A stretch of DNA of 64,000 nucleotides from Oscillospiraceae bacterium (GCA_017434755.1 JAFRER010000016.1:86391-150390), one strand, 5' to 3'. Counted from the first letter of the stretch, positions 2,814-35,763 are shown. Translations and numbers: made by a program. Notes: generated by a model from the letters alone, not told the origin.

Positions 2814-2816
2814 ACC

Positions 2817-9352: not shown

Positions 9353-9403
9353 GACGCTGAAGAGGGGAGGCGTTTTCGCCCCCTCGGGGAAAGGATGTTT
9401 TGC

Positions 9404-16512: not shown

Positions 16513-16725
16513 ATGAAACTCAGCGCAAGGAATCAGTTCAAGGGAACCGTCGTCGGTATCGAGGAAGGCGCCGTGAACGGCATCGTCAGGATCGATATCG
16601 GCGGCGGCAACGTGATGAGCGCCACCATCTCCATGGCGGCGATCAGGGAGCTCGGCCTTGAAGTGGGCAAAGAGGCCTACGCCGTGGTAAAAGCCACATC
16701 CGTCATGGTGGGCGTGGAGCACTGA
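16513..16725 (+). CDS. Molbindin (Mop/TOBE single-domain molybdate-binding protein, 70 aa)
   Basis: MKLSARNQFKGTV..V...ATIT..A...L.L..G....A..KA..V is the classic Mop/TOBE sequence. Confidence 0.9.
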   Translation: MKLSARNQFKGTVVGIEEGAVNGIVRIDIGGGNVMSATISMAAIRELGLEVGKEAYAVVKATSVMVGVEH

Positions 16726-16794: not shown

Positions 16795-17826
16795 TCAGCC
16801 CTCGCAGGCGTCCTCGACGAGCACTTTCATCAGCCCGCCGCAAACCATGCCGTCCGATTCGGCCACCTCGCCGGTAAGGTCGATGTCCACGATCTTGTAG
16901 CGCCCGGTGCCGATGATCCGTACCGCGTCCTGGATGACGGCCGCCTCGCTGCAGCCGCCGCCGATGCTGCCCGTGACCTTGCCGAGAGGGCTCACGGCCA
17001 TCTTGGCGCCTGTGCCGCGGGGCGTGGAGCCCTTGGTTTCGATGACGGTGACGATGGCCTTGGGATCATGATTCTCCGCGAAGTAATGCAGAGTGCTCAG
17101 CTCCACGTCGGAATCGTTGCAGTAACGGCCCGGGTCGCCGTGCTCGGGAAGGCGCTTGTAGGCGATGACCTCGGAGAGGATGGAGACGGCGATCTCTCCC
17201 GGCGTGACGGCGCCGATGTTAAGTCCTATGGGGGTGCAGATCTTCGCAAGACGGTCGGGATCAAAACCCTCGTCTTTCAGCATCTGAAGGAGACCCGTTG
17301 TGCGTCTTCTCGATCCGATCATGCCAAGGTAGGCAGGCATAGTGCCGGGAAGGAGGACACGCAGACAGTCGGCGTCGTGCCGGTGGCCGCGGGTGATCAC
17401 TACCACATAATCGAAGGGCGTGACGGCGAGCTTCGTTATGCCGTTTTCAAAGCTGTCGCATATCACCTCGGCGGCCTCGGGGAAGCGGGCGCGGTTTGCA
17501 AAATCCGGCCTGTCGTCCACCACGCAGACGGTGAAGCCGCAGGCGGCTCCGAAGGAGCAGACGGGCAGGGCTATATGACCCGCACCGAGAACGATCAACC
17601 GCTCCTGCGGCAAAACGGGTTCCCGGACACAAAGGCCATCCTCCGTTTTCTCCGCAGTCACGCGGGCGAAGCTCCTGCCCTTCGCGTCCGTGACGGGCGT
17701 GACGCCTGTGAGCTGCCTTATGAGTCCGCCTTTTACCTCGCCGGATTCGCCCTTTATGACCGTTTCAAGGGACACGGCTTTGTTTTCGGCCAGTTTATTG
17801 AGTATTTCCTTATAAATGTTCTCCAT
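16795..17826 (-). CDS. XdhC/CoxI-family Moco insertion/sulfuration accessory protein (atypical domain order)
   Basis: Rossmann-like LIVLGAGHIALPV...VVDDRP in the middle. Cys-containing XdhC_CoxI-type domain (TVIETKGSTPRGTGAKM...GSIGGGCSE...) at the C-terminus. I place the start at ATG 17826 (MENIYKE). Confidence 0.8.
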   Translation of the reverse strand: MENIYKEILNKLAENKAVSLETVIKGESGEVKGGLIRQLTGVTPVTDAKGRSFARVTAEKTEDGLCVREPVLPQERLIVLGAGHIALPVCSFGAACGFTVCVVDDRPDFANRARFPEAAEVICDSFENGITKLAVTPFDYVVVITRGHRHDADCLRVLLPGTMPAYLGMIGSRRRTTGLLQMLKDEGFDPDRLAKICTPIGLNIGAVTPGEIAVSILSEVIAYKRLPEHGDPGRYCNDSDVELSTLHYFAENHDPKAIVTVIETKGSTPRGTGAKMAVSPLGKVTGSIGGGCSEAAVIQDAVRIIGTGRYKIVDIDLTGEVAESDGMVCGGLMKVLVEDACEG

Positions 17827-17837
17827 ATCGGTGACCT

Positions 17838-18884
17838 CTATTCTATTACGGTTTTTCCCAGGATCCTGTTGATTTTTTCCTTTATCTGCAGCGCTGTCTC
17901 CAGCCGGCATGCGTGGGCTTCCATCGCCTCCCGCGTCAGGCAGCGCGATGCGCTGCCCGCAAACCGCTCCTCGATCGTGACGCGCCGTTCCCCTTCGAAG
18001 CATTTATCCGCCAGGAAGACGATGGCGGCTTCGTCCAGCTGTGTGCCTTCAAGGTCATGGTGCCGGCGGATGATCTCGGCGACGGCAGGGTAACCCAGTT
18101 CGAGAAGCCACTCTGCTCCGGCTTCGGGATGGTGTTTCCGTGCCCGCGCAATGTCGTGGATGAGAGCGGAGCTTCTGACAAGCGGGGTACTGAGCTGCAA
18201 ACCCGCCCCCGTCAGCATGCCGCAAAGTCCGGATGCAAGATCCGCCACGGCTCTGCAATGTGCTTTGAGAGCATCATCCGCGTCTGCCGCGCTCATCATG
18301 GCGTCACACACCTCATCCCGAAGTCCGGGATGGGGCTGCCTTCCGATCTCCGTGACCTTCAGCCCGTTTACGCCGTACTCCGCAACGGAAACACTGGCCC
18401 ATCCGAGCATCTCACGGCAGCCCGTGACGGTGGAGATGCTGCTCTTGTGGGCGACGACGGCAATGTCTCCATCACTTTCAGCAAGGCAGCGGGCGACCGC
18501 TTCCCGGAATCTTTCAGCCATGTGTTCCAGCGTCTCAGCACCTTCCGGGAGGGTATAGGGATCATGCTCCCTTATTGCATAGAGTTCCGGCCAGCCGGTC
18601 CTGATCTCGGTGAAGGAGAGCCCGTCCCAGACACCCATATCCTGTTCCTCAAGGCCCGGGATCGTCACCGGGGAGGACGAAATGGCAAGAGCCGTTTCCC
18701 GGCTGCGGCTCAGACTGCTGCAGAAAACGGCGTTCAGGCCCTTCAGATCCGGTTCAAAACGAAGGAGAGAAGCCTGTATCTTCCCGTATGACCCGAGCGG
18801 AATGTCGGTTCTGCTGCCGACACACCATCTTTCTCCGAAAGGAATGTCCGGTCTGGCATGACGGATAAAGAAAACCCTGCGCAT
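17838..18884 (-). CDS. Fusion protein: histidine phosphatase (CobC/PGM-like) N-domain plus HD-domain phosphohydrolase C-domain
   Basis: N-terminal RHARPD...VVAHKSS (catalytic His motifs). C-terminal ...LIHDIAR...HH... (HD motif). The start codon shares 1 nt with the upstream stop (TGATG). Confidence 0.8.
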   Translation of the reverse strand: MRRVFFIRHARPDIPFGERWCVGSRTDIPLGSYGKIQASLLRFEPDLKGLNAVFCSSLSRSRETALAISSSPVTIPGLEEQDMGVWDGLSFTEIRTGWPELYAIREHDPYTLPEGAETLEHMAERFREAVARCLAESDGDIAVVAHKSSISTVTGCREMLGWASVSVAEYGVNGLKVTEIGRQPHPGLRDEVCDAMMSAADADDALKAHCRAVADLASGLCGMLTGAGLQLSTPLVRSSALIHDIARARKHHPEAGAEWLLELGYPAVAEIIRRHHDLEGTQLDEAAIVFLADKCFEGERRVTIEERFAGSASRCLTREAMEAHACRLETALQIKEKINRILGKTVIE

Positions 18885-19807
18885 CAGAACAGTCCCTCAA
18901 AATAAGAATCGAAAAGCTCCGCGGCATGATTGCGAAGCTCTTCGGAGAAGGCCTCGTAGCGCTCGAGCAGGAGTTTTCCGTCATCGGTGAGGCTGCTTTT
19001 GCCTCCGCCGGTCCCGCCCTGGCTGCGCTCGATAAGGGTGCGGCAGAGCTGGCTTTCCAGCGTGCGGATCACGTTCCAGCCGCTGGAATAGGACATCTGC
19101 ATCCGCTGGCACGCGCTGCGCACGGACCGGGTCTCATCTATGAGACGGAGGAGCATGGCGGCTCTTCCGTCAAAAAACACCTTTTCCCGTGCGAGAGAGA
19201 CGCTGAGCACGGGACGGACCAGCTGGTCGTTGTGGTATTTCAGCAGGGCCCGGTAATCCTCGGGGGTGTCCGCATCGTGCAGAATGCCCTTGTCTTCGAC
19301 AGGGACCTTCTCCATCTTCGCTCCGCTGCGGTCGAGCGCACCGCGAAGGCCTTCGGTGCCGCTGTCAGACAGGATGGCATCAAATAGGGAAGAGGAGATG
19401 AGGGTGGGATGGCCGGTCTCTCCTTCAACGCTCGGACAGGCCAGGGGAGAATCCGTCTCCAGAAGGGCGCGCACCGTTGCCGCGGTAAAAAGCGGGATGT
19501 CCACAGGCGTGAAGAGCACCCTGTCGCACTTGTCGCGCAGATAGCGCAGGCCGATGCATACGGAGTCGAACATCTGGGTGGTCCTATATTCCTCGTTTCG
19601 TAGGAACACGATACCATTTCCACTCAGATGCCGCTCAAGAAGTGTGGCGTTATAGCCGGTGATCATTACGATCTTCTCCACGCCGGCCTGCTTGAAGGTG
19701 GCCACCACGCGCTGGGCGATGGAGATGGAGCCGATATTGAGCATGGGCTTGAAGTCCCCCATGCGGGAGGACATGCCCGCGGCAACGATGAGAGCGGCGT
19801 TCGTCAT
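18884..19807 (-). CDS. MobA/MocA-like molybdenum cofactor nucleotidyltransferase fused to a ModE-N-terminal-type winged HTH
   Basis: N-terminus LIVAAGMSSRMG..KPML...TPVDIP. The C-terminus FFDGRAAMLLRLIDETRSVRSACQRMQMSYSSGWNVIRTLE...ERSQGGTGGGKSSLT aligns by eye to the E. coli ModE DNA-binding domain. Confidence 0.85.
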   Translation of the reverse strand: MTNAALIVAAGMSSRMGDFKPMLNIGSISIAQRVVATFKQAGVEKIVMITGYNATLLERHLSGNGIVFLRNEEYRTTQMFDSVCIGLRYLRDKCDRVLFTPVDIPLFTAATVRALLETDSPLACPSVEGETGHPTLISSSLFDAILSDSGTEGLRGALDRSGAKMEKVPVEDKGILHDADTPEDYRALLKYHNDQLVRPVLSVSLAREKVFFDGRAAMLLRLIDETRSVRSACQRMQMSYSSGWNVIRTLESQLCRTLIERSQGGTGGGKSSLTDDGKLLLERYEAFSEELRNHAAELFDSYFEGLF

Positions 19808-20565
19808 GGTCTTTGCTCCTTTTTATAAGGGAAGAACGGGCAGTCACGCCCGATGCATTCTCTGTTTTCGGACATATAGGTACAGCGGACATCGCTCAAA
19901 GGCATTTCGATGCCGAAGTGTTCCGCCGTGTAGGCTGCTGCCTCTTTTATGCAGAGCCTGCCGGTGCGCTTGCAGCAGCGCGGGCCGCCGACCTCGGCTA
20001 TCTTCGCGAGGCAGCGTGAGGTGAGGCGCATGGGGACAGGCCAGGCCTCCTTGTTCAGGGGAGTTGATCCCGTGAGCACACTCATATAGATCCCGGCTCC
20101 GGCAGCGGCACCGCATACGCCCCAGAAGCCGCATGCGCCGCCGGGTACCTGATGGCCCCGGCTCAGGGCCGCGGAGAGCATCTGCTTCAGGTCGCCCTCG
20201 CCGCCGCAGTTATGCCAGGCGGCAAGCAGGACGCAGGGAACGATCGCGTGATGCTCCGGCCCGTGCATATGTACCTGCGGGAGGGTGATCACCGACTCGA
20301 AGAGCTTCAGAGGATCTTTTTCGTCGCTTTGGAGCAGGAAGGGGACGAAAAACTGATCGAGTCCCGCGGCATGGCAGGCGTTGCAGACAAAATGACCGTC
20401 CTCGCAGACAGCATCGGAAAGAGCCTCCTGCCCGCATACGGAGCAGCGGCGGGGCACAGCTATGAGTTCATAACGCAGCGGTTTTCCGCAGAGCATGCAG
20501 CCGGAGAAGGCTTCTTTCTTCGTGGCGCGTCCGCCTCTGCCGGGAATCTCGCAGCAGCCGGCCAT
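19804..20565 (-). CDS. Cys-rich protein of unknown function (N-terminal Zn-ribbon-like CxxC pairs, GACGFWGVCGAAAGAG core; possibly DUF5714)
   Basis: 253 aa with more than 20 Cys. ATGA overlap with the downstream NTP-transferase gene. The family name is from memory only. Confidence 0.7.
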   Translation of the reverse strand: MAGCCEIPGRGGRATKKEAFSGCMLCGKPLRYELIAVPRRCSVCGQEALSDAVCEDGHFVCNACHAAGLDQFFVPFLLQSDEKDPLKLFESVITLPQVHMHGPEHHAIVPCVLLAAWHNCGGEGDLKQMLSAALSRGHQVPGGACGFWGVCGAAAGAGIYMSVLTGSTPLNKEAWPVPMRLTSRCLAKIAEVGGPRCCKRTGRLCIKEAAAYTAEHFGIEMPLSDVRCTYMSENRECIGRDCPFFPYKKEQRP

Positions 20566-20716
20566 GTTTTCACCTCATTTTTACGTTTCATTTAACAGAT
20601 ATCGTATTTTATACAGTATAACCGATTGTTTTTTATTTGTAAATCGACGGAGCCTGTTTTTTCGTGCATCCGGGAGCGGTTCGTGGTATGATGACGGAAA
20701 GAGAGGCGGGGTGGAT

Positions 20717-21664
20717 ATGGATATCTTTATATACGGCACCGGCTGCGGAGCCGGAGACCTTGTGGATGAGGCGCTTCCGATCGAGAAAGTGACGGCCTTT
20801 GTCGACCGTGAGGGCGGCCGGTTCCTCGGAAAGCCGGTGATCACGCTTTCGGAACTTGCCGGTCGGGACTTCGACCTTCTGATCGTGGCCAGCCGGGACG
20901 CGGAGCATGTGGAAAGGGAATGCGGAAGACTGGGGATCGATCCCGGAAAGCTGTTTTTCCTCCGGAACCACATGAAGATCGTCGACAGAAACCGCAGCTA
21001 TGAAACGGCACGCGCCCTGCTCGGGGACAGATTCATTGACCGGATGATACACGCCGAAAAGCTCATACGCACACCGCTCTGGACGGAGAAGGAGCGCATC
21101 GCCGGACCGGGATCGGATAACGACTACGTGCGCCTAAAGACCCTGGAGGCCATCTGCATGCGGCTGGAAGGCGTGAAGGGAGCCGCGGCGGAGCTCGGCG
21201 TGAACAAAGGCGGCTTTGCCCGCTGGATCAGCGAGCTGCTGCCGGACAGGACGCTCTTTCTTTTCGATACGTTTTCGGGCTTCGACCCGCAGGAGAGCGC
21301 AGACTGCGGCGAGGGCTTCAAAGAGGCCCACCGCAAGGCGGCGGCGGAGAAAGTGCTTGCCGTCCTCCCGCATCCCGAGCAGGCGGTGATCCGCCGGGGC
21401 CTGTTCCAGGAAACCGCGCAGGGCCTGGAAGAGGAGCGATTTGCTCTGGTCTCGCTGGACGCGGATCTGGAGGAGAGCACGCTGGCGGGGCTTCGCTTCT
21501 TCTTCCCGCGGATGAGAGAGGGCGGCTATATGCTGCTGCACGACTGGAACAATCCGAAGCTGCCGGGCGTGAAACGCGCGCTGGAGCGATTTGAGGCGGA
21601 GTACGGAAGGCTGCAGGCCGTGCCGCTGTGCGACGTGAACGGGACGCTGGTGATAACTGTTTAA
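20717..21664 (+). CDS. TylF/MycF-like class I SAM-dependent methyltransferase with an N-terminal Rossmann-like extension
   Basis: Motifs ELGVNKGG...LFLFDTFSGF...SLDADLEEST...MLLHDW. Start ATG 20717 follows the RBS GAGAGG. The annotated longer ORF begins in the divergent promoter region. Confidence 0.8.
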   Translation: MDIFIYGTGCGAGDLVDEALPIEKVTAFVDREGGRFLGKPVITLSELAGRDFDLLIVASRDAEHVERECGRLGIDPGKLFFLRNHMKIVDRNRSYETARALLGDRFIDRMIHAEKLIRTPLWTEKERIAGPGSDNDYVRLKTLEAICMRLEGVKGAAAELGVNKGGFARWISELLPDRTLFLFDTFSGFDPQESADCGEGFKEAHRKAAAEKVLAVLPHPEQAVIRRGLFQETAQGLEEERFALVSLDADLEESTLAGLRFFFPRMREGGYMLLHDWNNPKLPGVKRALERFEAEYGRLQAVPLCDVNGTLVITV

Positions 21665-21716
21665 TGTGTTAATAATGACGGTTTTGCACAGGTGAAATTT
21701 ATACAGTGTATACAAA

Positions 21717-21747
21717 AAGCAATTCGCAAGTTCTGCGAATTGCTTTT
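21717..21747 (+). terminator. Rho-independent terminator
   Basis: Perfect 11-bp stem AGCAATTCGCA / TGCGAATTGCT with a 5-nt loop and a T4 tail. Confidence 0.8.
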
Positions 21748-21756
21748 CATTACAAG

Positions 21757-21786
21757 TTGGTACTTCCTTTTTTTGAAGAGTATAAT
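21757..21786 (+). promoter_or_regulatory. Probable SigA promoter of the MOP operon
   Basis: TTGGTA (21757-21762), 18-nt spacer, TATAAT (21781-21786). Confidence 0.55.
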
Positions 21787-21829
21787 ATAAATGTCTCATA
21801 ATGTGCCAAAAAAGAGGGGGGTGATCCCG

Positions 21830-22084
21830 ATGGGGGACGAACTTTTCGAGATCGTTGCGCACGAGGTGACCGTGGAGGTCCGTGATGAGAAAACGGGAGA
21901 GATCTTCCGCAGGGAGCTGCCCATCGATTACTTCGAGAACGCAAACTTTCTCCGCCTTAGCGGCGAGAATCTGGACGGGAGCCTTTCCCAGCTGGTGTTC
22001 TATACGCCGCGCGGGATCGAGCGTGTGAAGGACGTTTCCGGCAAGGGCCCGGACCACGACCGCTGCGGCGGGCACAGCCACTGA
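21830..22084 (+). CDS. Small hypothetical protein (84 aa) with a C-terminal Cys/His tail
   Basis: Start ATG 21830 follows the strong RBS AGAGGGGGGTGA. The ATG at 21791 sits immediately after the -10 box, so it is unlikely to be the start. The protein ends ...GPDHDRCGGHSH. I recognised no family. Confidence 0.55.
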   Translation: MGDELFEIVAHEVTVEVRDEKTGEIFRRELPIDYFENANFLRLSGENLDGSLSQLVFYTPRGIERVKDVSGKGPDHDRCGGHSH

Positions 22085-22154
22085 GCATCAACAGGCGCAA
22101 TACCCTTTAAGGGAAAAAATAAAAAATTTATTATAATAATCAGGAGGAAAACGC

Positions 22155-24911
22155 ATGATAAGAAAAACACTTGTCATCAACGGCGTCACCAGAAACCTTG
22201 TCCTGGAACAGGACGAGACCCTTGCAAAGGTTCTGCGTGAGCATCTGCTGCTGACCGGCTGCAAGATCGGCTGCGGCGAAGGCCACTGCGGCGCCTGCAA
22301 CGTCATCATGAACGGCAAGGTCACCAAGTCCTGCATCTACAAGATGAGCAAGGTACCCGATGGCGCCGAGATCACCACCATCGAAGGTGTCGGCACCCTG
22401 AGCGACATGCACCCCCTGCAGGTTGCGTGGATGGCCCACGGATGCGCACAGTGCGGCTTCTGCACACCGGGCTTCATCATCAGCGCAAAAGTGCTTCTTG
22501 AGAACAATCCCAGCCCCACCAGAGAAGAAGTCCGCGACTGGTTCAACAAACAGCGCAACCTCTGCCGCTGCACCGGATACAAACCCCTCATTGACGCGGT
22601 CATGGATGCAGCTGCCGTTCTCCGCGGCGAGATGAGCAAGGAAGACCTCGTCTTCAAGCCCACCGGCGACAGCATCAAGGGAACCAAGTACATCCGTCCC
22701 TCTGCTGCCCAGAAGGTCACCGGCACTTGGGACTTCGGTGCTGACGACGCACTGAAGATGCCTGGCTGCCTGCGTCTGGCCCTCACACAGGCGAAGGTCT
22801 CCCACGCGAATATCAAGAACATCGACACTTCCGAAGCCGAGAAGATGCCCGGCGTCGTGAAGGTCATCACCTACAAAGATATCCTCGCTGCAGGCGGCAC
22901 CAACCAGATCAACGGCCTGGTCATGCTTCCGAAGCACAACAAGACCGACGGATTTGAGCGTCCCGTGCTCTGCTCCGATAAGATCTTCCAGTTCGGCGAT
23001 GCCATCGCAATCGTCGCGGCCGACACCGAAGAGCATGCACGCGCTGCTGCCGATGCGGTCAAGGTCGATATCGAAGAGCTCCCCGCATACATGAGCGCAC
23101 TCGACGCCATGGCTCCCGACGCCATCGAGATCCATCCGGGCACTCCGAACGTCTTCTATGAGACGAACTGCATCAAGGGACCCGACTTCGACTGGGACAG
23201 CGTTCCCGACAGCCAGCAGATCGAGATCGAGAGCTACTGCAGCCGTCAGCCCCACTTGCACCTCGAGCCGGACAACGGCTACGGCTATATCGATGAGGAC
23301 GGAATGGTCACCGTTCACTCCAAGTCCATCGGTATCCACCTGCATATGCCGATGATCGCAGCCGGTATCGGCGTTCCCATGGAGAATCTCCGTATCATCC
23401 AGAACCACGCCGGCGGCACCTTCGGCTACAAGTTCTCACCGACCAACGAAGCTCTTATCGGCGCTGCCGCCAAGATCATCGGCAAGCCCGTCTCCCTGAA
23501 CTTCAACCAGTTCCAGAACATAACCTACACCGGCAAGCGCAGCCCCGCCTTCATGCACATCAAGCTCGCTGCCGACAAGAACGGCAAGCTCCTTGCTCTC
23601 TGGGGCGACAACTATGTCGACCACGGCCCGTACTCCGAGTTCGGCGACCTGCTCACCATGCGTCTGAGCCAGTTCACCGGCGCCGGATTTGACATTCCCT
23701 CCATCCGCAACAAGAGCCAGACCGTGTTTACGAACCATGCATGGGGCTCCGCCTTCCGTGCCTACGGTTCCCCGCAGTCCTTCATGGGCTCCGATATCGC
23801 CATCGATTGCCTGGCTGCCAAGATGGGCATCGATCCGTTCGAGATGCGCGCCATGAACTGCTACAAAGAGTCTGCCAAGTCCACCATACCCACGGGCTAT
23901 GCGCCTGATGTGTACTGCGAAGAGGACCTCTTCAACAAGGCCCGCCCGCTGTATGAGGCCGGCAAGAAGAGAGTTGCGGAAAAGAACGCAGCCTCCGACG
24001 GACGTTACAAATACGGCATAGGCGTATCCCTCGGCGTATACGGATGCGGACTTGACGGCGTCGACGCCTCCTCCGCGAAGCTGAGACTCAACGCTGACGG
24101 AACGGTCACCCTCTTCGTATCCTGGGAGGATCACGGACAGGGCGCTGACATGGGCGCACTTGTTTCCACGCACGAGACACTGCGTCAGGCCGGCTTCAAG
24201 CCCGAGCAGATCAAGCTCGTCATGAACGACACCAAGTACACGCCGAACTCCGGTCCTGCGGGTGGCTCCCGTTCCCAGGTCATGTCCGGCAACGCCTGCC
24301 GTCTCGCCGCCGAGGCCCTCGTAGCCGAGATGAAGAAGGATGACGGCAGCTTCCGTACCTATGACGAGATGGTCGCCGACGGCAAGAAGCTCGAAGTGGA
24401 AGGCAACTGGGTCACCACCTACTGCGCGGATCATCCCGTTGATCAGGATACCGCCCAGGGCGAACCCTTCGCCACTTACATGTACTCCATCTTCCTCCCC
24501 GAAGTATGTGTCGACACCCAGACCGGTAAGGTCAAGGTCGAGAAGTTCACCTGCGTTGCCGACGTCGGCACCATCATGAACAAGCTCCTCGTCGACGGCA
24601 ACTTCTACGGCGGACTCACCCAGGGCATCGGACTCGCCCTCAGCGAGGACTTCGAGGATCTGAGCAAGCACACCAGCCTCCTCAAGTGCGGCATCCCGTA
24701 TCCGAACGATGTTCCGGACGACATCGAGCTCGTGTACAACGAGACCTACCGTCCGAACGGACCTTACGGAGCGGCCGGCTGCGGCGAGGCACCTCTGGAT
24801 GCTCCTCACCCGGCAATCCTCAATGCCATCTTCAACGCCACCGGCGCCAGGATCACCCGTATCCCGGCACGTCCGGAGAATGTTCTTGCGGCGCTGAAAG
24901 AGCTCGGCTGA
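22155..24911 (+). CDS. mop: MOP-type aldehyde oxidoreductase (xanthine oxidase family, 2x[2Fe-2S] plus molybdopterin-cytosine-dinucleotide domain, no FAD domain)
   Basis: 918 aa. Near-colinear by eye with Desulfovibrio gigas MOP: CKIGCGEGHCGACNV, CAQCGFCTPG, RDWFNKQRNLCRCTGYKPLIDAVMDAAAV, VSHANIKNIDTSEAEKMPGV, WEDHGQGAD, GLALSEDFED. Confidence 0.92.
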   Translation: MIRKTLVINGVTRNLVLEQDETLAKVLREHLLLTGCKIGCGEGHCGACNVIMNGKVTKSCIYKMSKVPDGAEITTIEGVGTLSDMHPLQVAWMAHGCAQCGFCTPGFIISAKVLLENNPSPTREEVRDWFNKQRNLCRCTGYKPLIDAVMDAAAVLRGEMSKEDLVFKPTGDSIKGTKYIRPSAAQKVTGTWDFGADDALKMPGCLRLALTQAKVSHANIKNIDTSEAEKMPGVVKVITYKDILAAGGTNQINGLVMLPKHNKTDGFERPVLCSDKIFQFGDAIAIVAADTEEHARAAADAVKVDIEELPAYMSALDAMAPDAIEIHPGTPNVFYETNCIKGPDFDWDSVPDSQQIEIESYCSRQPHLHLEPDNGYGYIDEDGMVTVHSKSIGIHLHMPMIAAGIGVPMENLRIIQNHAGGTFGYKFSPTNEALIGAAAKIIGKPVSLNFNQFQNITYTGKRSPAFMHIKLAADKNGKLLALWGDNYVDHGPYSEFGDLLTMRLSQFTGAGFDIPSIRNKSQTVFTNHAWGSAFRAYGSPQSFMGSDIAIDCLAAKMGIDPFEMRAMNCYKESAKSTIPTGYAPDVYCEEDLFNKARPLYEAGKKRVAEKNAASDGRYKYGIGVSLGVYGCGLDGVDASSAKLRLNADGTVTLFVSWEDHGQGADMGALVSTHETLRQAGFKPEQIKLVMNDTKYTPNSGPAGGSRSQVMSGNACRLAAEALVAEMKKDDGSFRTYDEMVADGKKLEVEGNWVTTYCADHPVDQDTAQGEPFATYMYSIFLPEVCVDTQTGKVKVEKFTCVADVGTIMNKLLVDGNFYGGLTQGIGLALSEDFEDLSKHTSLLKCGIPYPNDVPDDIELVYNETYRPNGPYGAAGCGEAPLDAPHPAILNAIFNATGARITRIPARPENVLAALKELG

Positions 24912-24943
24912 TTCTTTTCAAATCGCACAGGCAATGATATAAT

Positions 24944-24974
24944 GGGGATGCGGTTTTCCGCATCCCCGGTTTTT
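24944..24974 (+). terminator. Intrinsic terminator/attenuator immediately after mop
   Basis: Stem GGGGATGCGG / CCGCATCCCC with a TTTT loop, followed by GGTTTTT. A TATAAT-like hexamer lies just upstream (24938-24943). Confidence 0.6.
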
Positions 24975-25002
24975 GATTTTCGGATCATACAGGAGTGAGG
25001 CC

Positions 25003-27291
25003 ATGGGTACTATAAAGGAGCGCGGCTCCACCCACGTCTATAAGGTCAATAAAATCTCCAAAGAGGAAATGGAGAGCATGGTGGCCCGCTGCGTCTATGA
25101 GGAGCCGCCGTTCTGCAGCGCGGCCTGTCCGCTGAAGCTGGACGTGCTCGCCTTCCTGGAGGCAGCGGCGGCGGGAAGCTTCAAAAAAGCACTGCAGCTG
25201 TATGAAAAGATCGCGCCGTTTCCGCTGATCCTGTCCGCCGGCTGCGAGGCTCCCTGCGAGGCGAAATGCCGCCTGAGCGAGATCGGCGAGGGCGTGCTGA
25301 TCAGCGAGGTCGAAAGGGCCGTTTCCCGCTTCGGCGAGCAGAGTAAACTGGGCGGCGTATTCCGCAGCAAGAAGCGGAAGAGCACCGCCGTCCTGGGCTC
25401 GGGGCTTTTCGCTCTGATGCTGGCCGGTGAGCTGGAAAAGAAGGCCTATCCCATCAAAGTGTTCTGCGAGCAGGATTCCTGTGAAAGCTACCTGCGCGCC
25501 TGCGCTCCTTTTCTGGATGAGGAGTCCTTCGCTGTGGAGCTCAAGCGCCTGCGCGGGAAGGACATTCAGTTTGAATTCAACTGTCGCATGGACGCGGCGT
25601 TCTATGATGATATAAAGGGCTCGTTCGATGTGCTCTGCGCATCCGACGAGCTGCGGCGGAGCCTCTTTCCAGAGGCCGAGCCGAACCAGGAACTCATGTT
25701 CTGTGAGGAGCAGGGGCTGGTCAGCGGCAGGACGGAGGGAGTCCTTGGTGCCGCTTTCGGTGCGAAGAAGGCGGCGCTCACGGTGGACAGGCTCGCCCAG
25801 GGTCTCGACCCTCGGAACACCCGCGGACAGGAGGGCTCGGTAGAGAGCAGGCTCTATACCGACCTGAGCGAGGCGGCGGCGCTGAAGCGTGTGCCCTGCC
25901 CCGAAGAAGGCTACAGCAGGGAACAGGCCATGGAGGAGGCGGGAAGGTGCATCTCCTGCCACTGCGAGGAGTGCCTGAAAAGCTGCGCATACCTGAAGCA
26001 CTATAAAAAACACCCAGGCCTGCTGGCCAGGGAGATCTACAACAACACCCAGATCATCATGGGCGACCACCAGCTGAACAAGCCCATGAACGCCTGCTCC
26101 CTCTGCGGGCAGTGCACGGCTGTGTGTCCCAATGATTTCGATATGGCGCGGGTATGTCTGCTGGCGCGGAAGAATATGGTGTCCACCGATAAAATGCCGC
26201 TGGCGCCCCATGAATTTGCGCTGATGGACATGTTCTTCTCCAACATCGACGCCTTTCTTTCAAGGCCCCAGCCCGGATTTGAAAAGTGCAAATATGTTTT
26301 CTTCCCGGGCTGTCAGGCGGCGGCGATTGCGCCGGAGACGGTGAAGGCCGCCTACCGCGATCTGACTGAACGGCTAGAGGGCGGCGTGGCGCTGATCCTC
26401 GGCTGCTGCGGCGCCATAGCAAGCTGGGCCGGCAGGGACGAGATGGCGGATCAGACCCATGAACAGCTCGACAGAGAGCTTGCCCGCCTCGGCGATCCCA
26501 TCGTGATAGCCGGCTGTCCCAGCTGCGCGAAGGAGCTTCGTGAAAACGGGGCGAAGGACGTACGCGGGATCTGGGACGTGCTGCTGGAACTGGGTCTTCC
26601 CGAGGGAGCGCACGCGCTGGAGAGACCGGCGGCGCTGCACGACTCCTGCGGCGCACGCGGGGATGAGAAAACGCAGGCAGCCATACGGGAGCTTGCGTCC
26701 CGGCTCGGCTGCGAACTGGTGGATACGCCCTACTCCGGCGACCGGTCTCCCTGCTGCGGCTACGGAGGACTCACAGCCTACGCAAACCGCGAGGTGGCCG
26801 GCGAGATGACGGAGAAATGCCTGGAGCGCAGCGATGCGCCGTATATCTCCTACTGCATGGCCTGCCGGGATCGCTTTGCCCGTCAGGGCAGGGAATCGAG
26901 GCATATCCTGGAGCTCTGCTATGGCACCGACGCCGGCAGCCCGCCGGACATCAGCGAGAAACGGAAAAACCGCCTGGCGTTGAAAAACGAGCTGCTGCAG
27001 GAGATCTGGCTGGAGGATGCGATGGAGGACAAACTGGATTATAAGCTCTTGTTCACGGACGAGGCGCGGGAGCTGATGGACGACCGCATGATCCTCGTGG
27101 AGGACGTGATCGCCGTGATGGAGGACTTCCGGGAAAGCGGCGAGGCCATAGAGGACGATGACGGCCTGCTCGTGGCGCGCCGGCGTGTGGGCAACGCCAC
27201 CTTCTGGGTCAAATTCAGCCTGGAGGACGGAGGCTATCTCATCCGCCGCGCATGGAGCCACCGCATGAAGGTCGTAAAACGGGAGGGCTGA
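25003..27291 (+). CDS. Multidomain Fe-S protein: GltD-N-like Cys region, degenerate dinucleotide-binding fold, 2x[4Fe-4S], two CCG (HdrD/GlpC-like) domains, and a C-terminal domain of unknown function
   Basis: 762 aa from ATG 25003 (RBS AGGAGTGAGG). Motifs PPFCSAACP...CEAPCEAKC, AVLGSGLFAL, CISCHCEECLKSC, CSLCGQCTAVCPNDFD, FFPGCQ and HDSCGARG (CCG-type). Confidence 0.85.
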   Translation: MGTIKERGSTHVYKVNKISKEEMESMVARCVYEEPPFCSAACPLKLDVLAFLEAAAAGSFKKALQLYEKIAPFPLILSAGCEAPCEAKCRLSEIGEGVLISEVERAVSRFGEQSKLGGVFRSKKRKSTAVLGSGLFALMLAGELEKKAYPIKVFCEQDSCESYLRACAPFLDEESFAVELKRLRGKDIQFEFNCRMDAAFYDDIKGSFDVLCASDELRRSLFPEAEPNQELMFCEEQGLVSGRTEGVLGAAFGAKKAALTVDRLAQGLDPRNTRGQEGSVESRLYTDLSEAAALKRVPCPEEGYSREQAMEEAGRCISCHCEECLKSCAYLKHYKKHPGLLAREIYNNTQIIMGDHQLNKPMNACSLCGQCTAVCPNDFDMARVCLLARKNMVSTDKMPLAPHEFALMDMFFSNIDAFLSRPQPGFEKCKYVFFPGCQAAAIAPETVKAAYRDLTERLEGGVALILGCCGAIASWAGRDEMADQTHEQLDRELARLGDPIVIAGCPSCAKELRENGAKDVRGIWDVLLELGLPEGAHALERPAALHDSCGARGDEKTQAAIRELASRLGCELVDTPYSGDRSPCCGYGGLTAYANREVAGEMTEKCLERSDAPYISYCMACRDRFARQGRESRHILELCYGTDAGSPPDISEKRKNRLALKNELLQEIWLEDAMEDKLDYKLLFTDEARELMDDRMILVEDVIAVMEDFRESGEAIEDDDGLLVARRRVGNATFWVKFSLEDGGYLIRRAWSHRMKVVKREG

Positions 27292-27293
27292 GC

Positions 27294-27515
27294 ATGGCGA
27301 TCGAGAAGAATTATTACACCATTGATCCCGAAGGGAAGATCAGGTGCTTCAAGTGCAAGGTCCCGCTTATAAAAGGCAAGGCCAAGTTCATGTATCTGGA
27401 CAACGGCTTCCCCGTGGAGCTGCCGGTATGTCCGGTCTGCGGCTACGTATATGTGCCTGAGGAGCTGGCGCTGGGCAAGGTGGCGTCCGTTGAGAGAGCG
27501 CTGGAGGATAAATGA
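27294..27515 (+). CDS. Small Zn-ribbon protein (73 aa; resembles what annotation pipelines call a DVU_1557-family redox protein)
   Basis: CFKC...CPVC pairs. RBS GGGAGGG. Lies 2 nt after the preceding stop. The family name is from memory. Confidence 0.7.
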   Translation: MAIEKNYYTIDPEGKIRCFKCKVPLIKGKAKFMYLDNGFPVELPVCPVCGYVYVPEELALGKVASVERALEDK

Positions 27516-28024
27516 GGAGCCATCCCGGAGGAAAGGAACACACCCTCCGCATGCTGGAACTGGCGGAACTTCCCGAGGGGGCCTCTGTGCTGGATATGGG
27601 CGCCGGAGCCGGAGAGGCTCTGAAACTCCTGCGCTCGATGGGCTTTGAGGCGGAGGGGATCGATCTCAAGCCGCGCTCGACACTTGTCCGGCGGGGCGAC
27701 TTTCTGCACACGGGTTTTCCCGATGAGAGTTTCAACGCGGTACTGAGCCAGTGCGCCTTTTTCGTATCGGGCGACCAGAGCGGCGCGGTCAGGGAAGCCT
27801 ACCGGCTGCTTCGGAAAGGTGGGAAGCTCCTGCTTTCGGATGTTTTTTTCACCGATCCGCAGGACATGCTTCGGAACGCGGGCTTTACTGTGATATACAG
27901 CGAGGACATGACCGGGCTCTGGAGGGAGTATTATCTCGAGACTCTCTGGCGGGACGACGCCCTTTGCTGCGGGATCCCGAAGGGCAAAAGCAGCTATCAC
28001 TTTCTGATCGGAAGAAAGGACTGA
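27512..28024 (+). CDS. Small class I SAM-dependent methyltransferase (170 aa)
   Basis: Motif I VLDMGAGAGEAL and post-I GIDL. ATGA overlap with the upstream gene. Confidence 0.8.
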   Translation: MRSHPGGKEHTLRMLELAELPEGASVLDMGAGAGEALKLLRSMGFEAEGIDLKPRSTLVRRGDFLHTGFPDESFNAVLSQCAFFVSGDQSGAVREAYRLLRKGGKLLLSDVFFTDPQDMLRNAGFTVIYSEDMTGLWREYYLETLWRDDALCCGIPKGKSSYHFLIGRKD

Positions 28025-28028
28025 TACC

Positions 28029-28454
28029 ATGGATCTGTTTGACAGAATAATGGAACTGAGCCGTTACGGCTATTTCTGCAGCCAGATACTGGCCATACTC
28101 ATGCTGGACACGATCGGCGAGGAAAACCCAGGCCTCGTGAAAGCGATGGGAGGCCTGAACGGCGGCGTGGGCTATTCGCAGGGCTGCTGCGGCTGCATGA
28201 CGGGCGGCGTATGCCTAATCTCTTATTTTACGGGCAAGGGCGAGGACACGGGCTACGACGATCCGCAGCACAAGCCGGCCCTCAGTGAATTCACAAAGTG
28301 GTTTGAGGAGGAGATGACCGCGGAATACGGCGGCATCGACTGCCGCGACATAACCAAAGGCAATCCCGCCAAGAGAGTGGAATACTGCCCGGCAATCATC
28401 GCCGCCACCTTTGAGAAATGCATGGAGATCCTGCAGGAAAGGGAACTGCTGTGA
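28029..28454 (+). CDS. C_GCAxxG_C_C family protein (putative redox-active Cys protein)
   Basis: Ordered Cys pattern: FCSQ ... GCCGCMTGG ... DCRDI ... YCPAII. Confidence 0.8.
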   Translation: MDLFDRIMELSRYGYFCSQILAILMLDTIGEENPGLVKAMGGLNGGVGYSQGCCGCMTGGVCLISYFTGKGEDTGYDDPQHKPALSEFTKWFEEEMTAEYGGIDCRDITKGNPAKRVEYCPAIIAATFEKCMEILQERELL

Positions 28455-28459
28455 GTGAT

Positions 28460-29671
28460 ATGCCTGTATCCCGCCTGGATGCGCTGATAGCGGAGCAGGA
28501 GGGACTGGAACGGGTCGATGCGGAAACCATACGGTCGATCCAGCTGAAAAAACTGAACCGGCTCCTGGAGCGTGAAAAGGAACGCGGAGGCTTCTACCGG
28601 GGCCTTCCGGAGCGGCTGCGTTCTCTGGAGGAGCTCCCGTTCCTCCCGTTTACCACCGATGAGGATCTCGCTGCAAATTCGAGCGGGCTATTGCTGTGCT
28701 CCCAGGCGAGAGTGTCGAGAGTCCTGTCCGACGCCACCTCCGGCACCACGGGCGCAGCCAAGCGCGTGTTCTATACCGAGGACGATCTGGAAAACACGGT
28801 GCAACTCTATATGGCGGGGCTGGGAGAACTTGTTTTCCCGGGCAGCGTCACCATGATCTGCTTTCCTTTCTCCGGACCGTTTGGGTTAGGGGAACTTATT
28901 TCCGAAGCCATAAGCCGTCTCGGTGCAAAACCGCTGAAGACAGGGCCTTTCCTCTGCTACGGGGAATACGCGGAACTGCTGGAACGTGAAAAGCCAGACA
29001 CATTCGTGGGAATGCCCGTACAGCTGCTGGGACTGCTGCGTTTCTGCGGCAGAGGCAGCCTGCGCCGCGCCCTCGTCAGCGGGGACGCGTGCCCGGAGAG
29101 CGTGATCCGGGAATGCGAGAGCATTCTCGGCAGCAGGCTTTTCCCGCATTACGGCTCACGGGAAATGGGCATGGCCGGTGCGATCTGCTGTCAGGCTCAT
29201 GAGGGCATGCACCTGCGGGAGAACAAGATCATCGCGGAGATCGTGGATGGGGCGGGCAATGCTCTCCCCAAAGGAGAATGGGGCGAGCTCGTGATCACCA
29301 CGATCGGGATGGAGGCCATGCCCCTCATCCGCTACCGCACCGAAGACTATACGCGCATTCTTCCCTCGCCCTGCCCCTGCGGCAGCCAGACACTGCGTCT
29401 GGACAGGATAGAGCGGAAGCAGGAAGGGCCGAGCGTGCCTGAACTCGACGGCATCGTTTTCACGGATCCGGCTGTGACGGACTGCCGCTATGAGCGGAAA
29501 GAGGACAGACTGGATGTGCTCATCCTGACAAAAGGCAGTGCGGATATTGCAGCGCTTGAGGAAAAGCTTTCCGCTGCCGCGGCGCCCCTGAAGGTCGGGA
29601 TCTCCGCAAGGGAGGCAACTCCTGGCGATCAGTCGCTCTATCGTGGGAAACGCACGCTGAACCAAAGCTGA
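28460..29671 (+). CDS. PaaK/coenzyme-F390-synthetase-like adenylate-forming enzyme (AMP-dependent ligase)
   Basis: P-loop-like SDATSGTTGAAKRVFYT. The C-terminal subdomain includes YRTEDY. An alternative GTG start at 28451 overlaps the upstream stop. Confidence 0.8.
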   Translation: MPVSRLDALIAEQEGLERVDAETIRSIQLKKLNRLLEREKERGGFYRGLPERLRSLEELPFLPFTTDEDLAANSSGLLLCSQARVSRVLSDATSGTTGAAKRVFYTEDDLENTVQLYMAGLGELVFPGSVTMICFPFSGPFGLGELISEAISRLGAKPLKTGPFLCYGEYAELLEREKPDTFVGMPVQLLGLLRFCGRGSLRRALVSGDACPESVIRECESILGSRLFPHYGSREMGMAGAICCQAHEGMHLRENKIIAEIVDGAGNALPKGEWGELVITTIGMEAMPLIRYRTEDYTRILPSPCPCGSQTLRLDRIERKQEGPSVPELDGIVFTDPAVTDCRYERKEDRLDVLILTKGSADIAALEEKLSAAAAPLKVGISAREATPGDQSLYRGKRTLNQS

Positions 29672-29679
29672 ACAGATTA

Positions 29680-29715
29680 AAAAACCGCCCGCATCGACTT
29701 GATGCGGGCGGTTTT
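29680..29715. terminator. Bidirectional terminator between the ligase (+) and def (-) genes
   Basis: Perfect 11-bp stem CCGCCCGCATC / GATGCGGGCGG with a 5-nt loop, flanked by A5 and T4. Confidence 0.85.
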
Positions 29716-29728
29716 GCGCTGTTCGGTT

Positions 29729-30208
29729 TTATTTTTTCATAACAAAGGATTTGCTGTCGATGGCTCTCATGGTGGCAAGGATGCCGTCCAGATGGTCATA
29801 TTCGTGCTGGATGAGCTCGGACATATCGTCGTCCATCCGCATCTCCCGCTTTTTCCAGTTTTCGTCCGTATAGCGGAGGATGCAATGACGCCAGCGCCGC
29901 ACGCGCACAAGAAGCTTCGGGAAGGACATGCAGTCGTCCATCAGTTCCATCATCTCGTCGCCGATGAATTTGAGGGAAGGGTTGATGATGACGTAAGGCC
30001 TGTCGGTGAGGATGCAGATCAGCCTCTTGTTGACGCCGATCTGCGGCGCTGCAATGGCCCGGCCGAAGCCGTAGTCGCGGCGGATGGCCTTTATGCAGTC
30101 GAACAGGTCCGTGATCGTGTCTTTTAAGCCTTCAAGCTCCTCGGGCCTGACCTCTTCGGATATCTCATACAGTCTCGGGTCGCCGAGCAGCAGGATCTCT
30201 CTTTCCAT
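29729..30208 (-). CDS. def: Peptide deformylase (variant motif 2)
   Basis: Motifs GRAIAAPQIG, DDCMSFP (in place of EGCLS), QHEYDHLDG. Confidence 0.8.
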   Translation of the reverse strand: MEREILLLGDPRLYEISEEVRPEELEGLKDTITDLFDCIKAIRRDYGFGRAIAAPQIGVNKRLICILTDRPYVIINPSLKFIGDEMMELMDDCMSFPKLLVRVRRWRHCILRYTDENWKKREMRMDDDMSELIQHEYDHLDGILATMRAIDSKSFVMKK

Positions 30209-35752: not shown

Positions 35753-35763
35753 TCGCCTGAGAT

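Follow-up and report, generated by a model that had tools for sequence, protein, structure and literature searches.

A conserved gene set around a MOP-type aldehyde oxidoreductase from an Oscillospiraceae bacterium: a candidate three-part system with an HdrABC-like electron partner and a cofactor-assembly line

The 64,000-nucleotide stretch of DNA analysed in the present study (hereafter the window; Oscillospiraceae bacterium GCA_017434755.1, JAFRER010000016.1:86391-150390, positions counted from its first letter) encodes a MOP-type aldehyde oxidoreductase (MOP; 22155-24911, plus strand, 918 amino acids) among a set of accessory genes. We showed that these genes co-occur near-obligately with MOP and in a conserved order, and we propose, with what we judge to be about an even chance of being right, that they form a three-part MOP system consisting of the enzyme, an HdrABC-like electron partner and a line of enzymes for cofactor assembly or maturation. 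In the window this system spans approximately 6116-29671. The original prediction, made from the sequence by a model, had described a module of 12 genes. Its 12 open reading frames (ORFs), strands, overlaps and gaps were reproduced to the nucleotide by our ORF map, and Pfam confirmed every domain call, but the module had been drawn too small: the radical S-adenosylmethionine (SAM) protein TrsS and the molybdenum cofactor (Moco) and molybdenum-uptake genes to the left belong to it too.

Pfam analysis showed MOP to be a single chain with two [2Fe-2S] domains, an α/β hammerhead and two Moco-binding domains (Fer2, Fer2_2, Ald_Xan_dh_C, MoCoBD_1 and MoCoBD_2) and no FAD domain. The protein scored 1498 bits against the NCBIfam equivalog NF045668 (cutoff 1100), and its residues 1-915 aligned with Desulfovibrio desulfuricans MOD (PDB 1DGJ; 58% identity) and D. 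gigas MOP (PDB 1SIJ/1VLB; 55% identity), with Cys40, Cys45, Cys48, Cys60, Cys100, Cys103, Cys137, Cys139 and the catalytic Glu878 invariant with respect to both PDB sequences. Having the same architecture, NCBIfam name, cluster cysteine residues and catalytic glutamate, it is by sequence a true ortholog of these two enzymes, but its host is a gut Oscillospiraceae and the closest locus (97% identity) is from Candidatus Limivicinus. MOP was the first xanthine-oxidase-family enzyme with a solved structure, and yet the picture of what it does in the cell, and of where its electrons go, is still a vague one. The D. gigas enzyme has reportedly been purified alone and shown to work with dyes or flavodoxin, and the structure at 1.28 Å is reported to contain plain molybdopterin cytosine dinucleotide (MCD) with no protein modification. 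Whereas biochemical publications describe MOP as a stand-alone enzyme that uses flavodoxin as acceptor, the genome context of the window would give it a dedicated partner and extra maturation genes. A single MOP cluster at 90% identity held 11,416 member sequences; the set is very common in gut metagenomes and is carried by Blautia species.

The co-occurrence of the accessory genes with MOP was analysed by scanning one genome per GTDB species with an alignment of the window MOP and two PDB sequences. Of the 585 MOP relatives that the scan gave, the 80 best-matching loci (59-97% identity; handles such as L065) were kept; they came from Bacillota (Clostridia and Negativicutes), Spirochaetota, Acidobacteriota, Alphaproteobacteria, Nitrospirota, Desulfobacterota and Myxococcota. 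To find accessory families, the window proteins were used as queries in iterated hidden Markov model searches of every six-frame ORF at the 80 loci, and a full-flank subset was defined as the 49 loci, from seven phyla, with at least 8 kb upstream and at least 9 kb downstream. In this subset, an iron-sulfur protein with two CCG motifs (the CCG protein) and a PaaK-like ligase were present at every locus (49/49), the DUF7479 and C_GCAxxG_C_C proteins at 48, TrsS at 46, a small methyltransferase at 45, and an NTP transferase and a His-phosphatase/HD protein at 41 each; XdhC was found at 30. Thus the expectation that the accessory families accompany MOP orthologs was borne out, with the core families in 41-49 of the 49 loci. 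The canonical order was MOP, CCG protein, DUF7479 protein, small methyltransferase, C_GCAxxG_C_C protein, (XdhC), (NTP transferase), TrsS, ligase, (His-phosphatase).

As a negative control, unrelated right-hand neighbours in the window (a peptide deformylase and an ORF at 30251) recurred in only one of the 80 loci, showing that the co-occurrence signal is not general synteny; the conservation of the accessory families goes far beyond what chance would give. The pairwise-distance matrices of all families correlated with that of MOP (r=0.66-0.94, as a descriptive statistic), the CCG protein giving the highest value (r=0.94), which is consistent with inheritance as a unit. Not all of the genes placed in the module by the original prediction belong to its core: a TylF-like methyltransferase (14/49 full-flank loci and 22/80 overall, Clostridia only, at varying positions within the cluster) and a DUF5714 protein (4/49 and 8/80) turned out to be lineage-specific extras. 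An 84-amino-acid protein was present at 31 of the 49 loci (Bacillota) and at 54 of the 80, almost all of them Bacillota. An all-versus-all clustering of the locus ORFs was noisy from antisense ORFs and missed TrsS. Apparent double matches of DUF7479 at some loci proved to be artefacts, arising from off-frame reading of the CCG gene at its 3′ end.

The CCG protein (25003-27291, plus strand, 762 amino acids) combines, according to Pfam, a Fer4_20 domain of the GltD/NfnB type (two [4Fe-4S] clusters), one Rossmann-like domain, a 4Fe-4S dicluster, the two CCG motifs and a C-terminal domain. It scored 788 bits against NF045663 (cutoff 530; profile positions 2-758), and both CXnCCXnCXXC motifs and all of the dicluster cysteine residues were invariant in 71 loci. 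PDB and Foldseek matches to GltD/NfnB covered the first ~200 residues only. The Rossmann-like domain (residues ~123-270) was modelled with a predicted local distance difference test (pLDDT) score of 77-95, the whole model having a pLDDT of 66 with poor Fe-S parts. Gly132 was invariant and the second glycine of the GxGxxG motif only at least 60% conserved, and homologs of the CCG protein matched NAD_binding_8 and Pyr_redox_2.

Two nucleotides downstream lies the gene for the DUF7479 protein (27294-27515, plus strand), a DVU_1557-family four-cysteine protein which scored 88.9 bits against NF045645 (cutoff 60) and in which the four cysteine residues (two CxxC pairs) and a C-terminal LEDK were invariant. 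When DUF7479 was searched against 1.84 billion representative proteins, 210 clusters only were returned, and in at least seven of the best 150 clusters DUF7479 was the C-terminal domain of a protein of 693-944 amino acids. BLASTP analysis of three such fusions revealed a full-length CCG homolog in front of DUF7479, with 27-28% identity over residues ~21-757. The genomic contexts of four CCG–DUF7479 fusions were then looked up among diverse DUF7479 representatives: those of L081, L082 and L084 directly adjoined a MOP-type gene, and the fourth, on the short contig L083, had only a small Fer2/Fer2_2 protein alongside. In L087 a separate CCG–DUF7479 pair lay directly beside a MOP-type gene. Because of these natural fusions and their adjacency to MOP, we regard the CCG and DUF7479 proteins as a single redox protein associated with MOP. 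DUF7479 is suggested to dock onto the C-terminal domain of the CCG protein.

With respect to known systems, the CCG protein shares with HdrABC and the GltD/NfnB modules (and also with GlpC, GlcF and HdrD) the Fer4_20 domain, the start of a Rossmann domain, a dicluster resembling that of HdrC and a pair of CCG motifs of the HdrB type. In contrast with them, it carries all of these modules in one polypeptide with a single Rossmann domain and no separate NAD(P)H domain, it adds a C-terminal domain and the DUF7479 subunit, its donor would be a molybdenum enzyme, and no heterodisulfide substrate is known for it. The CCG protein would be Hdr-like at the level of domain logic only. The idea of a heterodisulfide-reductase-like electron outlet for MOP, already put forward in the original prediction, fits these four features, the presence of the CCG protein in 49 of 49 loci and the DUF7479 fusions beside MOP.

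The C_GCAxxG_C_C protein (28029-28454, plus strand, 4 nt after the small methyltransferase gene), a DVU_1555-family member, scored 157 bits against NF045669 (cutoff 103) and had four invariant cysteine residues; no solved structure was found for it by sequence search. A relationship of DUF5714 to this protein was considered and rejected, as hhalign gave a probability of 14% and a resemblance at the motif level only. Some further arrangements were seen around the redox genes. L084:7221-18420 carried two tandem pairs of MOP and a CCG–DUF7479 fusion (compare the report for Clostridium ljungdahlii below). After these pairs came genes for a protein with DUF4213/DUF364 (putative metal chelation), for a methyltransferase, for a C_GCAxxG_C_C protein and for a TrsS–DUF5714 fusion. 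The C-terminal domain of the CCG protein was also found as a free protein just upstream of DUF7479, in L086:9720-10004 (94 amino acids) and as an 88-amino-acid ORF in the contexts of P0473.

A further indication of the electron outlet came from neighbours in other loci. In eight to nine alphaproteobacterial or acidobacterial loci (L061, L062, L063, L065, L066, L067, L073, L074 and L077), a complete gene set for a group-4 (Ech/Hyc-like) [NiFe]-hydrogenase was located directly upstream of XdhC and MOP on the same strand, comprising a NuoH-like protein, the small subunit, a 2x[4Fe-4S] protein and the large subunit (e.g. L065:4914-8569). This suggests an aldehyde-to-H2 ‘hydrogenlyase’ arrangement and argues for a low-potential outlet; it also fits an aldehyde-to-H2 chain that is reported to have been reconstituted in vitro in early work with D. 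gigas MOP.

The enzyme line is held together by gene fusions. In the window, the DVU_1551 profile NF045665 (cutoff 315) is split over two overlapping minus-strand genes: the MocA-like NTP transferase with a ModE-type helix-turn-helix (HTH) domain (NT; 18884-19807; Pfam NTP_transf_3 and HTH_1) covers profile positions 2-196 with 204 bits, and the HD half of the CobC-like histidine phosphatase plus HD phosphohydrolase (HisPhos/HD; 17838-18884; Pfam His_Phos_1 and HD; 1-nt overlap with the NT gene) covers positions 200-358 with 125 bits. NT matched the MocA model TIGR03310 with E=5e-33 and 114.7 bits (cutoff 186.45), and also a ModE_repress domain; its N-terminal (L/V)AAGxSSRMG motif, invariant in 58 homologs, corresponds to that of MocA. 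In 28 loci HD formed one protein with the NTP transferase, and in 16, the window included, it was joined to the His-phosphatase. One ORF encoded NT, HD and TrsS together in Telmatospirillum (L079) and likewise in a metagenome-assembled genome (MAG) of Terriglobales (L063), and in Sporomusa acidovorans (L053) the ligase and HisPhos shared an ORF. The DVU_1556 methyltransferase was fused to the DVU_1553 ligase in L086, and TrsS to a DUF5714/MbdU-like domain in L084. This chain of fusions ties seven domains (NT, HD, HisPhos, TrsS, DUF5714, ligase and methyltransferase) into one pathway. No fusions of the C_GCAxxG_C_C protein, XdhC, the 84-amino-acid protein or the TylF-like protein were seen.

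Known Moco maturation accounts for part of this set only. E. coli PaoABCD and Rhodobacter XdhABC (with MocA, an XdhC/PaoD chaperone and a NifS-like desulfurase) share with the window the MocA-like NT and the XdhC-like protein, and the likeness extends to a class-V aminotransferase (cysteine desulfurase-like) found in 21 MOP loci, usually after the ligase (e.g. L025:17795-18940). After this gene, 11 Lachnospiraceae-type loci carried an unannotated ORF of ~146 amino acids (e.g. L037:17422-17859). The maturation of xanthine-oxidase-family enzymes is not known to need a radical SAM protein, ANL ligase, methyltransferase or HD/HisPhos phosphohydrolase, whereas in the MOP loci the conservation of these extra enzymes equals or exceeds that of MocA and XdhC, and physical fusions connect them with NT. 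The biosynthetic lines of the iron-guanylylpyridinol (FeGP) cofactor (HcgA-G), F420 and mycofactocin use the same palette of radical SAM protein, SAM methyltransferase, nucleotidyltransferase, carboxylate-adenylating enzyme and cysteine-rich carriers; the comparison is an analogy, with homology no deeper than superfamily level. Given the fusion to a MocA-like protein, the company of Moco genes and this analogous palette, the seven-domain line would represent cofactor-type assembly or maturation rather than catabolism of a substrate.

In the widespread three-part system that we propose, and of which the window would carry the Oscillospiraceae version, MOP would, as judged from orthology, oxidize aldehydes at its MCD centre and pass the electrons to its two [2Fe-2S] clusters. 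The CCG–DUF7479 redox protein, probably together with the C_GCAxxG_C_C protein, would be the dedicated electron acceptor of MOP, the electrons flowing via the GltD/NfnB-type [4Fe-4S] clusters, the single Rossmann (flavin-type) domain and the ferredoxin-like dicluster to the two HdrB-type CCG sites, so that the CCG protein may in effect be an HdrA-C-B-like chain in one polypeptide. Candidates for the final acceptor are a thiol/disulfide or, in some lineages, the group-4 hydrogenase. The line of NT, HD, HisPhos, TrsS, PaaK-like ligase and small methyltransferase (plus DUF5714 in the window) would act on a nucleotide-linked small molecule or prosthetic group and, as gene fusions and gene order suggest, would make at least MCD, with XdhC, MoeA, MoeB, ModABC and Mop supplying and inserting the Moco. 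A more specific form of this proposal, which we consider rather unlikely as it stands, is that the fusion-linked enzymes build an undescribed nucleotide-derived cofactor or a protein-bound prosthetic group for the CCG, DUF7479 and C_GCAxxG_C_C proteins, MOP being the entry of an aldehyde-driven HdrABC-like complex that reduces a thiol-type acceptor or, via the group-4 hydrogenase, protons.

Several points weigh against this proposal. The Rossmann domain of the window CCG protein appears in the model to be short and single, and flavin binding is only putative. The correlations of the distance matrices partly reflect mere shared phylogeny. As D. gigas MOP is reported to have been purified alone with plain MCD, the extra enzymes would be dispensable for a MOP that is catalytically competent in vitro. 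Enzymes of the PaaK type usually serve in catabolism, as acid-CoA ligases. Finally, the association is not strict in either direction: the short contigs L081 and L082 carried MOP and a CCG–DUF7479 fusion only, and L086 had the accessory set without MOP within 10 kb.

The PaaK-like adenylate-forming enzyme (28460-29671, plus strand, 5 nt after the C_GCAxxG_C_C gene) is the natural starting point for a different explanation, namely that the ligase converts the acid produced by MOP into an acyl-CoA, with TrsS and the methyltransferase acting on the same small molecule and the CCG, DUF7479 and C_GCAxxG_C_C proteins serving as an electron outlet only. Its model would be anaerobic phenylalanine catabolism, in which an aldehyde oxidoreductase is followed by a phenylacetate-CoA ligase. 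Indeed, the closest solved and named relatives of the enzyme are phenylacetate-CoA ligases (best PDB match 4R1L, E=4e-31), and all of the ANL adenylation motifs, including the terminal lysine, were intact: the SGTTG..KR, YGxxE, RYRTxD and terminal GKR motifs were invariant (Thr93-Ser94-Gly95-Thr96, Lys101-Arg102, Glu235, Arg291-Tyr292-Thr294-Asp296 and Lys397). Substrate induction is suggested by GAF-PAS-sigma54 (AcoR-like) activators beside the MOP cluster in 17 loci (e.g. L056:6393-8393; Negativicutes, Acidobacteriota, Alphaproteobacteria, Nitrospirota and Clostridium ragsdalei), in place of which the window has the ModE-type HTH fused to the NTP transferase and a free Mop/TOBE protein. The window itself also contains, at 1065-3389, genes for an IorA/IorB-type indolepyruvate:ferredoxin oxidoreductase (TPP_enzyme_C/POR_N/Fer4; POR), of the arylpyruvate:ferredoxin oxidoreductase type that usually pairs with PaaK-like ligases. 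These genes lie 13 kb to the left of the cluster; no link between them and the MOP system was established, and IorA recurred in only one of the 80 MOP loci.

The ligase itself, however, falls outside the PaaK equivalog: it scored 322 bits against the DVU_1553 model NF045666 (cutoff 300) and 91 bits against PaaK TIGR02155 (cutoff 646), with ~30% identity to annotated PaaK proteins. A tblastn search against plasmids recovered only generic PaaK at ~30% identity and no copies of the system. The fusions of the ligase to HisPhos and the methyltransferase, chained to the MocA-like NT and HD, would make no sense for simple activation of an acid; where TrsS is displaced it travels with Moco genes, and the set is kept across seven phyla of very different carbon metabolism. 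Taken together, we give substrate processing only a small chance.

TrsS, a radical SAM protein of the Tes/GDGT-MAS family (11240-12520, plus strand; Pfam Zn_ribbon_HMPTM and Radical_SAM), was absent from the gene set of the original prediction, which was thus incomplete for a core member; it came to light on annotation of the left flank, having been missed because it lies in the window 16 kb from its usual partner, the ligase. It scored 494.9 bits against NF045646 (‘radical SAM (seleno)protein TrsS’; cutoff 490) and matched archaeal GDGT-MAS/Tes (PDB 7TOL) with E=1e-71 over residues 5-310 and 374-419. The CX3CX2C and N-terminal cysteine motifs were invariant in 60 sequences, and the catalytic motifs of TrsS, like those of the ligase and the methyltransferase, were all intact. 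The window protein is the cysteine form, with no in-frame TGA. TrsS shares with GDGT-MAS/Tes (earlier annotated as the pterin methylase HMPTM) the N-terminal zinc ribbon, the extra cysteine motifs and CX3CX2C, but it belongs to a separate family (495 bits for TrsS against 298 bits for the Tes equivalog); it occurs in bacteria, which have no tetraether lipids here, always as part of a molybdenum-enzyme cluster, and in some genomes it has NT-HD or DUF5714 fusions. It was present in 61 of the 80 loci; 54 loci had both TrsS and the ligase, and in 45 of these TrsS immediately preceded the ligase gene. Away from the ligase, it lay beside Moco or XdhC genes in the window, L001, L003 and L028, and beside Moco genes also in L010/11.

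In the window, the company of TrsS is a run of molybdenum genes. On the minus strand there are two MoeA genes, one with an additional PBP_like domain (6116-8026; Pfam MoeA_N, MoCF_biosynth, MoeA_C and PBP_like; 722 bits against NF011068, cutoff 534) and one for molybdopterin molybdotransferase without it (8030-9250; MoeA_N, MoCF_biosynth and MoeA_C; NCBIfam). These are followed on the plus strand by a MoeB/ThiF-type adenylyltransferase (9395-10180; Pfam ThiF, 263 bits), a G3E-family P-loop GTPase (CobW/HypB/UreG-like; 10177-11238; Pfam cobW; 4-nt overlap with the MoeB-like gene), TrsS, a MogA/MoaB-like MoCF_biosynth-domain protein (12677-13705; Pfam and the NCBIfam molyb_syn domain), the molybdate ABC transporter genes modA (13823-14722), modB (14783-15457) and modC (15454-16497; TIGR01256 and TIGR02141 above their cutoffs, modC being ModC-like) and a 70-amino-acid Mop/TOBE molybdate-binding protein (16513-16725; TIGR00638 91 bits, cutoff 55). 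The start of the MoeB-like gene is likely the internal ATG at 9395: the ORF opens at 9170, and NCBIfam MoeB-type alignments begin at residue ~84. Among the 80 MOP loci, MoeA genes were found in 6-8, modABC in 10-19 and a MoCF_biosynth gene in 15-17; the MoeB-like gene was not found in them. The G3E GTPase was seen immediately upstream of TrsS in the window and in L016 only, and it is possible that it is a metal-delivery factor for TrsS or the MOP system.

These neighbours bear on a second alternative, in which TrsS, the methyltransferase, the ligase and the phosphatases would act on molybdopterin, on MCD or on a precursor of these and modify it, perhaps only for a time, ahead of the insertion of the cofactor into MOP by XdhC. 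NT is MocA-like and the NT-HD-TrsS fusions tie the radical SAM protein to a nucleotide step; the Pfam ‘HMPTM’ zinc ribbon at the N-terminus of TrsS was named after a proposed pterin methylase; window TrsS is predicted to be co-transcribed with the MoeB-like, MoCF_biosynth and modABC genes, and XdhC and cysteine desulfurase genes occur in the clusters. Permanent tailoring of the cofactor of MOP itself is, however, disfavoured by the unmodified MCD reported for the 1.28 Å structure of the D. gigas enzyme. Molybdopterin has no carboxylate for ANL adenylation, and the archaeal TrsS homolog (7TOL) is now assigned to C-C coupling of lipids rather than pterin methylation. We therefore regard pterin tailoring as improbable, on a par with substrate processing. 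For the original prediction, which had suggested a cofactor-tailoring or substrate-activation pathway, this means that the pathway as such is supported by the fusion chain of NT, HD, HisPhos, ligase and methyltransferase, and that tailoring of MCD is difficult to reconcile with the reported D. gigas structure.

The small class-I SAM methyltransferase (27512-28024, plus strand, 4-nt overlap with the DUF7479 gene; Pfam Methyltransf_11) scored 116.9 bits against the DVU_1556 model NF045667 (cutoff 155), the match being confined to positions 4-127 of the 213 in the profile. SAM motif I is retained, as is an invariant cysteine in an ArsM-like ‘SxC’ motif, and the protein has the position and co-occurrence of DVU_1556 members. 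Its only named local similarity, around the invariant cysteine, is to arsenite methyltransferases. It is conceivable, then, that this ArsM-like enzyme, TrsS and the cysteine (elsewhere selenocysteine) proteins transform a soft metal(loid) such as arsenic or selenium, with MOP and the CCG protein giving low-potential electrons; several of the families have selenoprotein forms, MbdU was named ‘metal-binding’, L084 has a DUF364 domain for putative heavy-metal chelation and a G3E metallochaperone GTPase lies beside the window TrsS. However, the ArsM similarity extends over ~55 residues with 44 bits against a 263-bit cutoff, no recurring arsenic or selenium resistance or transport genes were found in the 80 loci, and NT, XdhC and the molybdenum genes point to Moco. 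Nor were selenocysteine forms of the cluster proteins found in the 80 loci by TGA read-through, the few matches being frameshifts or pseudogenes. Such metal(loid) chemistry is thus highly improbable. The weakest alternative, to which we attach hardly any weight, is reversible covalent regulation, in which NT would nucleotidylate MOP or its partner and HD and HisPhos remove the group (GlnD/GlnE-like), with ligase, TrsS and methyltransferase as passengers: the NT+HD fusions do resemble pairs of transferase and removing enzyme, but NT has a MocA-type motif and MocA as its best named match, MOP needs a cytidylyltransferase for MCD, and the fusion chain takes in TrsS, ligase and methyltransferase.

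The remaining genes of the window cluster are arranged in two divergent units. On the minus strand, the DUF5714 cysteine-rich protein (19804-20565; Pfam DUF5714, 214 bits), with a partial match to NF045648 (MbdU), overlaps the NT gene by 4 nt, and the XdhC-family Moco chaperone (16795-17826) follows the HisPhos/HD gene after an 11-nt gap. The latter is circularly permuted with the Rossmann domain first (Pfam XdhC_C at 77-220 and XdhC_CoxI at 251-315; the canonical order was seen in L065:8899-9786), and it scored 268 bits against NF045664 (cutoff 350), matching the second half of the profile only. The divergent intergenic region (20566-20716) contains a promoter-like site for the minus strand at 20643-20615. 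On the plus strand, the TylF-like SAM methyltransferase (20717-21664; Pfam TylF, 58 bits, and Methyltransf_24) is followed by the 84-amino-acid ORF (21830-22084), with a Cys/His-rich C-terminal tail. This ORF exactly matched P0121, annotated as ‘hypothetical protein’, and had 738 homolog clusters; no Pfam, NCBIfam or PDB relative was found for it, profile searches included, and its AlphaFold2 model (pLDDT 58) was unusable for a fold search. P0121, and P0241, which exactly matched the CCG gene model, are Oscillospiraceae MAG proteins.

With respect to signals, the hairpin that had been claimed after MOP at 24944-24974 was found at 24943-24968 as an intrinsic-terminator-like structure (24943-24980 with its T-run, plus strand): an 11-pair stem with eight GC pairs, followed by GTTTTTGATTTT. 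No other site in the 14 kb scanned resembled a terminator as strongly. A sigma-70-like promoter match (TTTTCA-17-TGnTATAAT) was seen at 24915-24943, ending exactly at the start of the hairpin. Transcription of the genes 3′ of MOP may therefore begin separately, or else the hairpin may serve for attenuation. A second terminator-like hairpin (29705-29725 plus a T-run), in the interval between the ligase and the convergent peptide deformylase gene (29681-29735), closes the plus-strand unit; sub-threshold Rfam ‘Thr_leader’ matches at 29681-29715 on both strands were matches to the hairpin. An Rfam search gave no match to a Moco riboswitch or other RNA at the gathering score. Further right, at 33746-36918, there are genes for a flavodiiron-type protein (metallo-beta-lactamase/ODP, flavin reductase and rubredoxin-like) and then a DUF362 Fe-S protein, which are of an oxygen- or NO-defence type and unrelated to the MOP set.

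The neighbourhood is no discovery of a new cluster, since curators recognize it and it is partly in print. NCBIfam holds a block of placeholder models for it: NF045663 for the CCG protein (‘diclust_near_Sec’; pyridine nucleotide-disulfide oxidoreductase/dicluster-binding protein), NF045664 (XdhC family aldehyde oxidoreductase maturation factor), NF045665 (DVU_1551 family NTP transferase), NF045666 (DVU_1553 family AMP-dependent ligase), NF045667 (DVU_1556 family methyltransferase), NF045669 (DVU_1555 family C-GCAxxG-C-C protein) and NF045645 (DVU_1557 family redox protein). Haft & Tolstoy 2025 (mSystems), cited by a review, is the likely origin of the names TrsS and MbdU and probably discusses the neighbourhood too. 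Every core gene of the window matched one of the curated DVU_1551-DVU_1559 models, with the CCG, DUF7479 and C_GCAxxG_C_C proteins, the ligase, TrsS and MOP above cutoff; three genes were below it because they are rearranged, NT being split from HD and joined to an HTH, XdhC permuted and the methyltransferase shortened. Compared with the DVU_1551-1559 neighbourhood, TrsS of the window has moved 16 kb, and the TylF-like, DUF5714 and 84-amino-acid proteins are extras. The parallel with the mop neighbourhood of Desulfovibrio vulgaris, which the original prediction had drawn, holds in view of the models named for the DVU_1551, 1553, 1555, 1556 and 1557 families and of DVU_1559, which is Aor in a D. 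vulgaris proteomics paper. So does its statement that the families carry placeholder names only and that their biochemistry is not established: the body of literature searched gave no paper on DVU1551-1558 or DUF5714, and no fitness or regulon data.

In Clostridium ljungdahlii, two tandem four-gene sets (CLJU_RS11830-11815 and 11870-11850) have been described, each encoding an MCD aldehyde oxidoreductase, a FAD/CCG iron-sulfur protein, a 4-Cys protein and a C_GCAxxG_C_C protein; the first set was up-regulated on syngas and/or H2/CO2, and its function was unknown in that paper (Aklujkar et al. 2017, PMC5640608). This is the same four-gene core as in the window, but the C. ljungdahlii description is without NT, HD, HisPhos, TrsS, ligase, methyltransferase and XdhC, and without the conservation across phyla.

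What the present analysis adds to this prior recognition are three concrete units, namely the CCG–DUF7479 partner, the fusion-tied seven-domain line that known Moco maturation does not explain, and the hydrogenase-coupled variant. If the line does make a new cofactor or modification, this would be new biochemistry in very abundant anaerobes, and such a cofactor would also bear on the aldehyde/acid redox metabolism of acetogens and gut bacteria.

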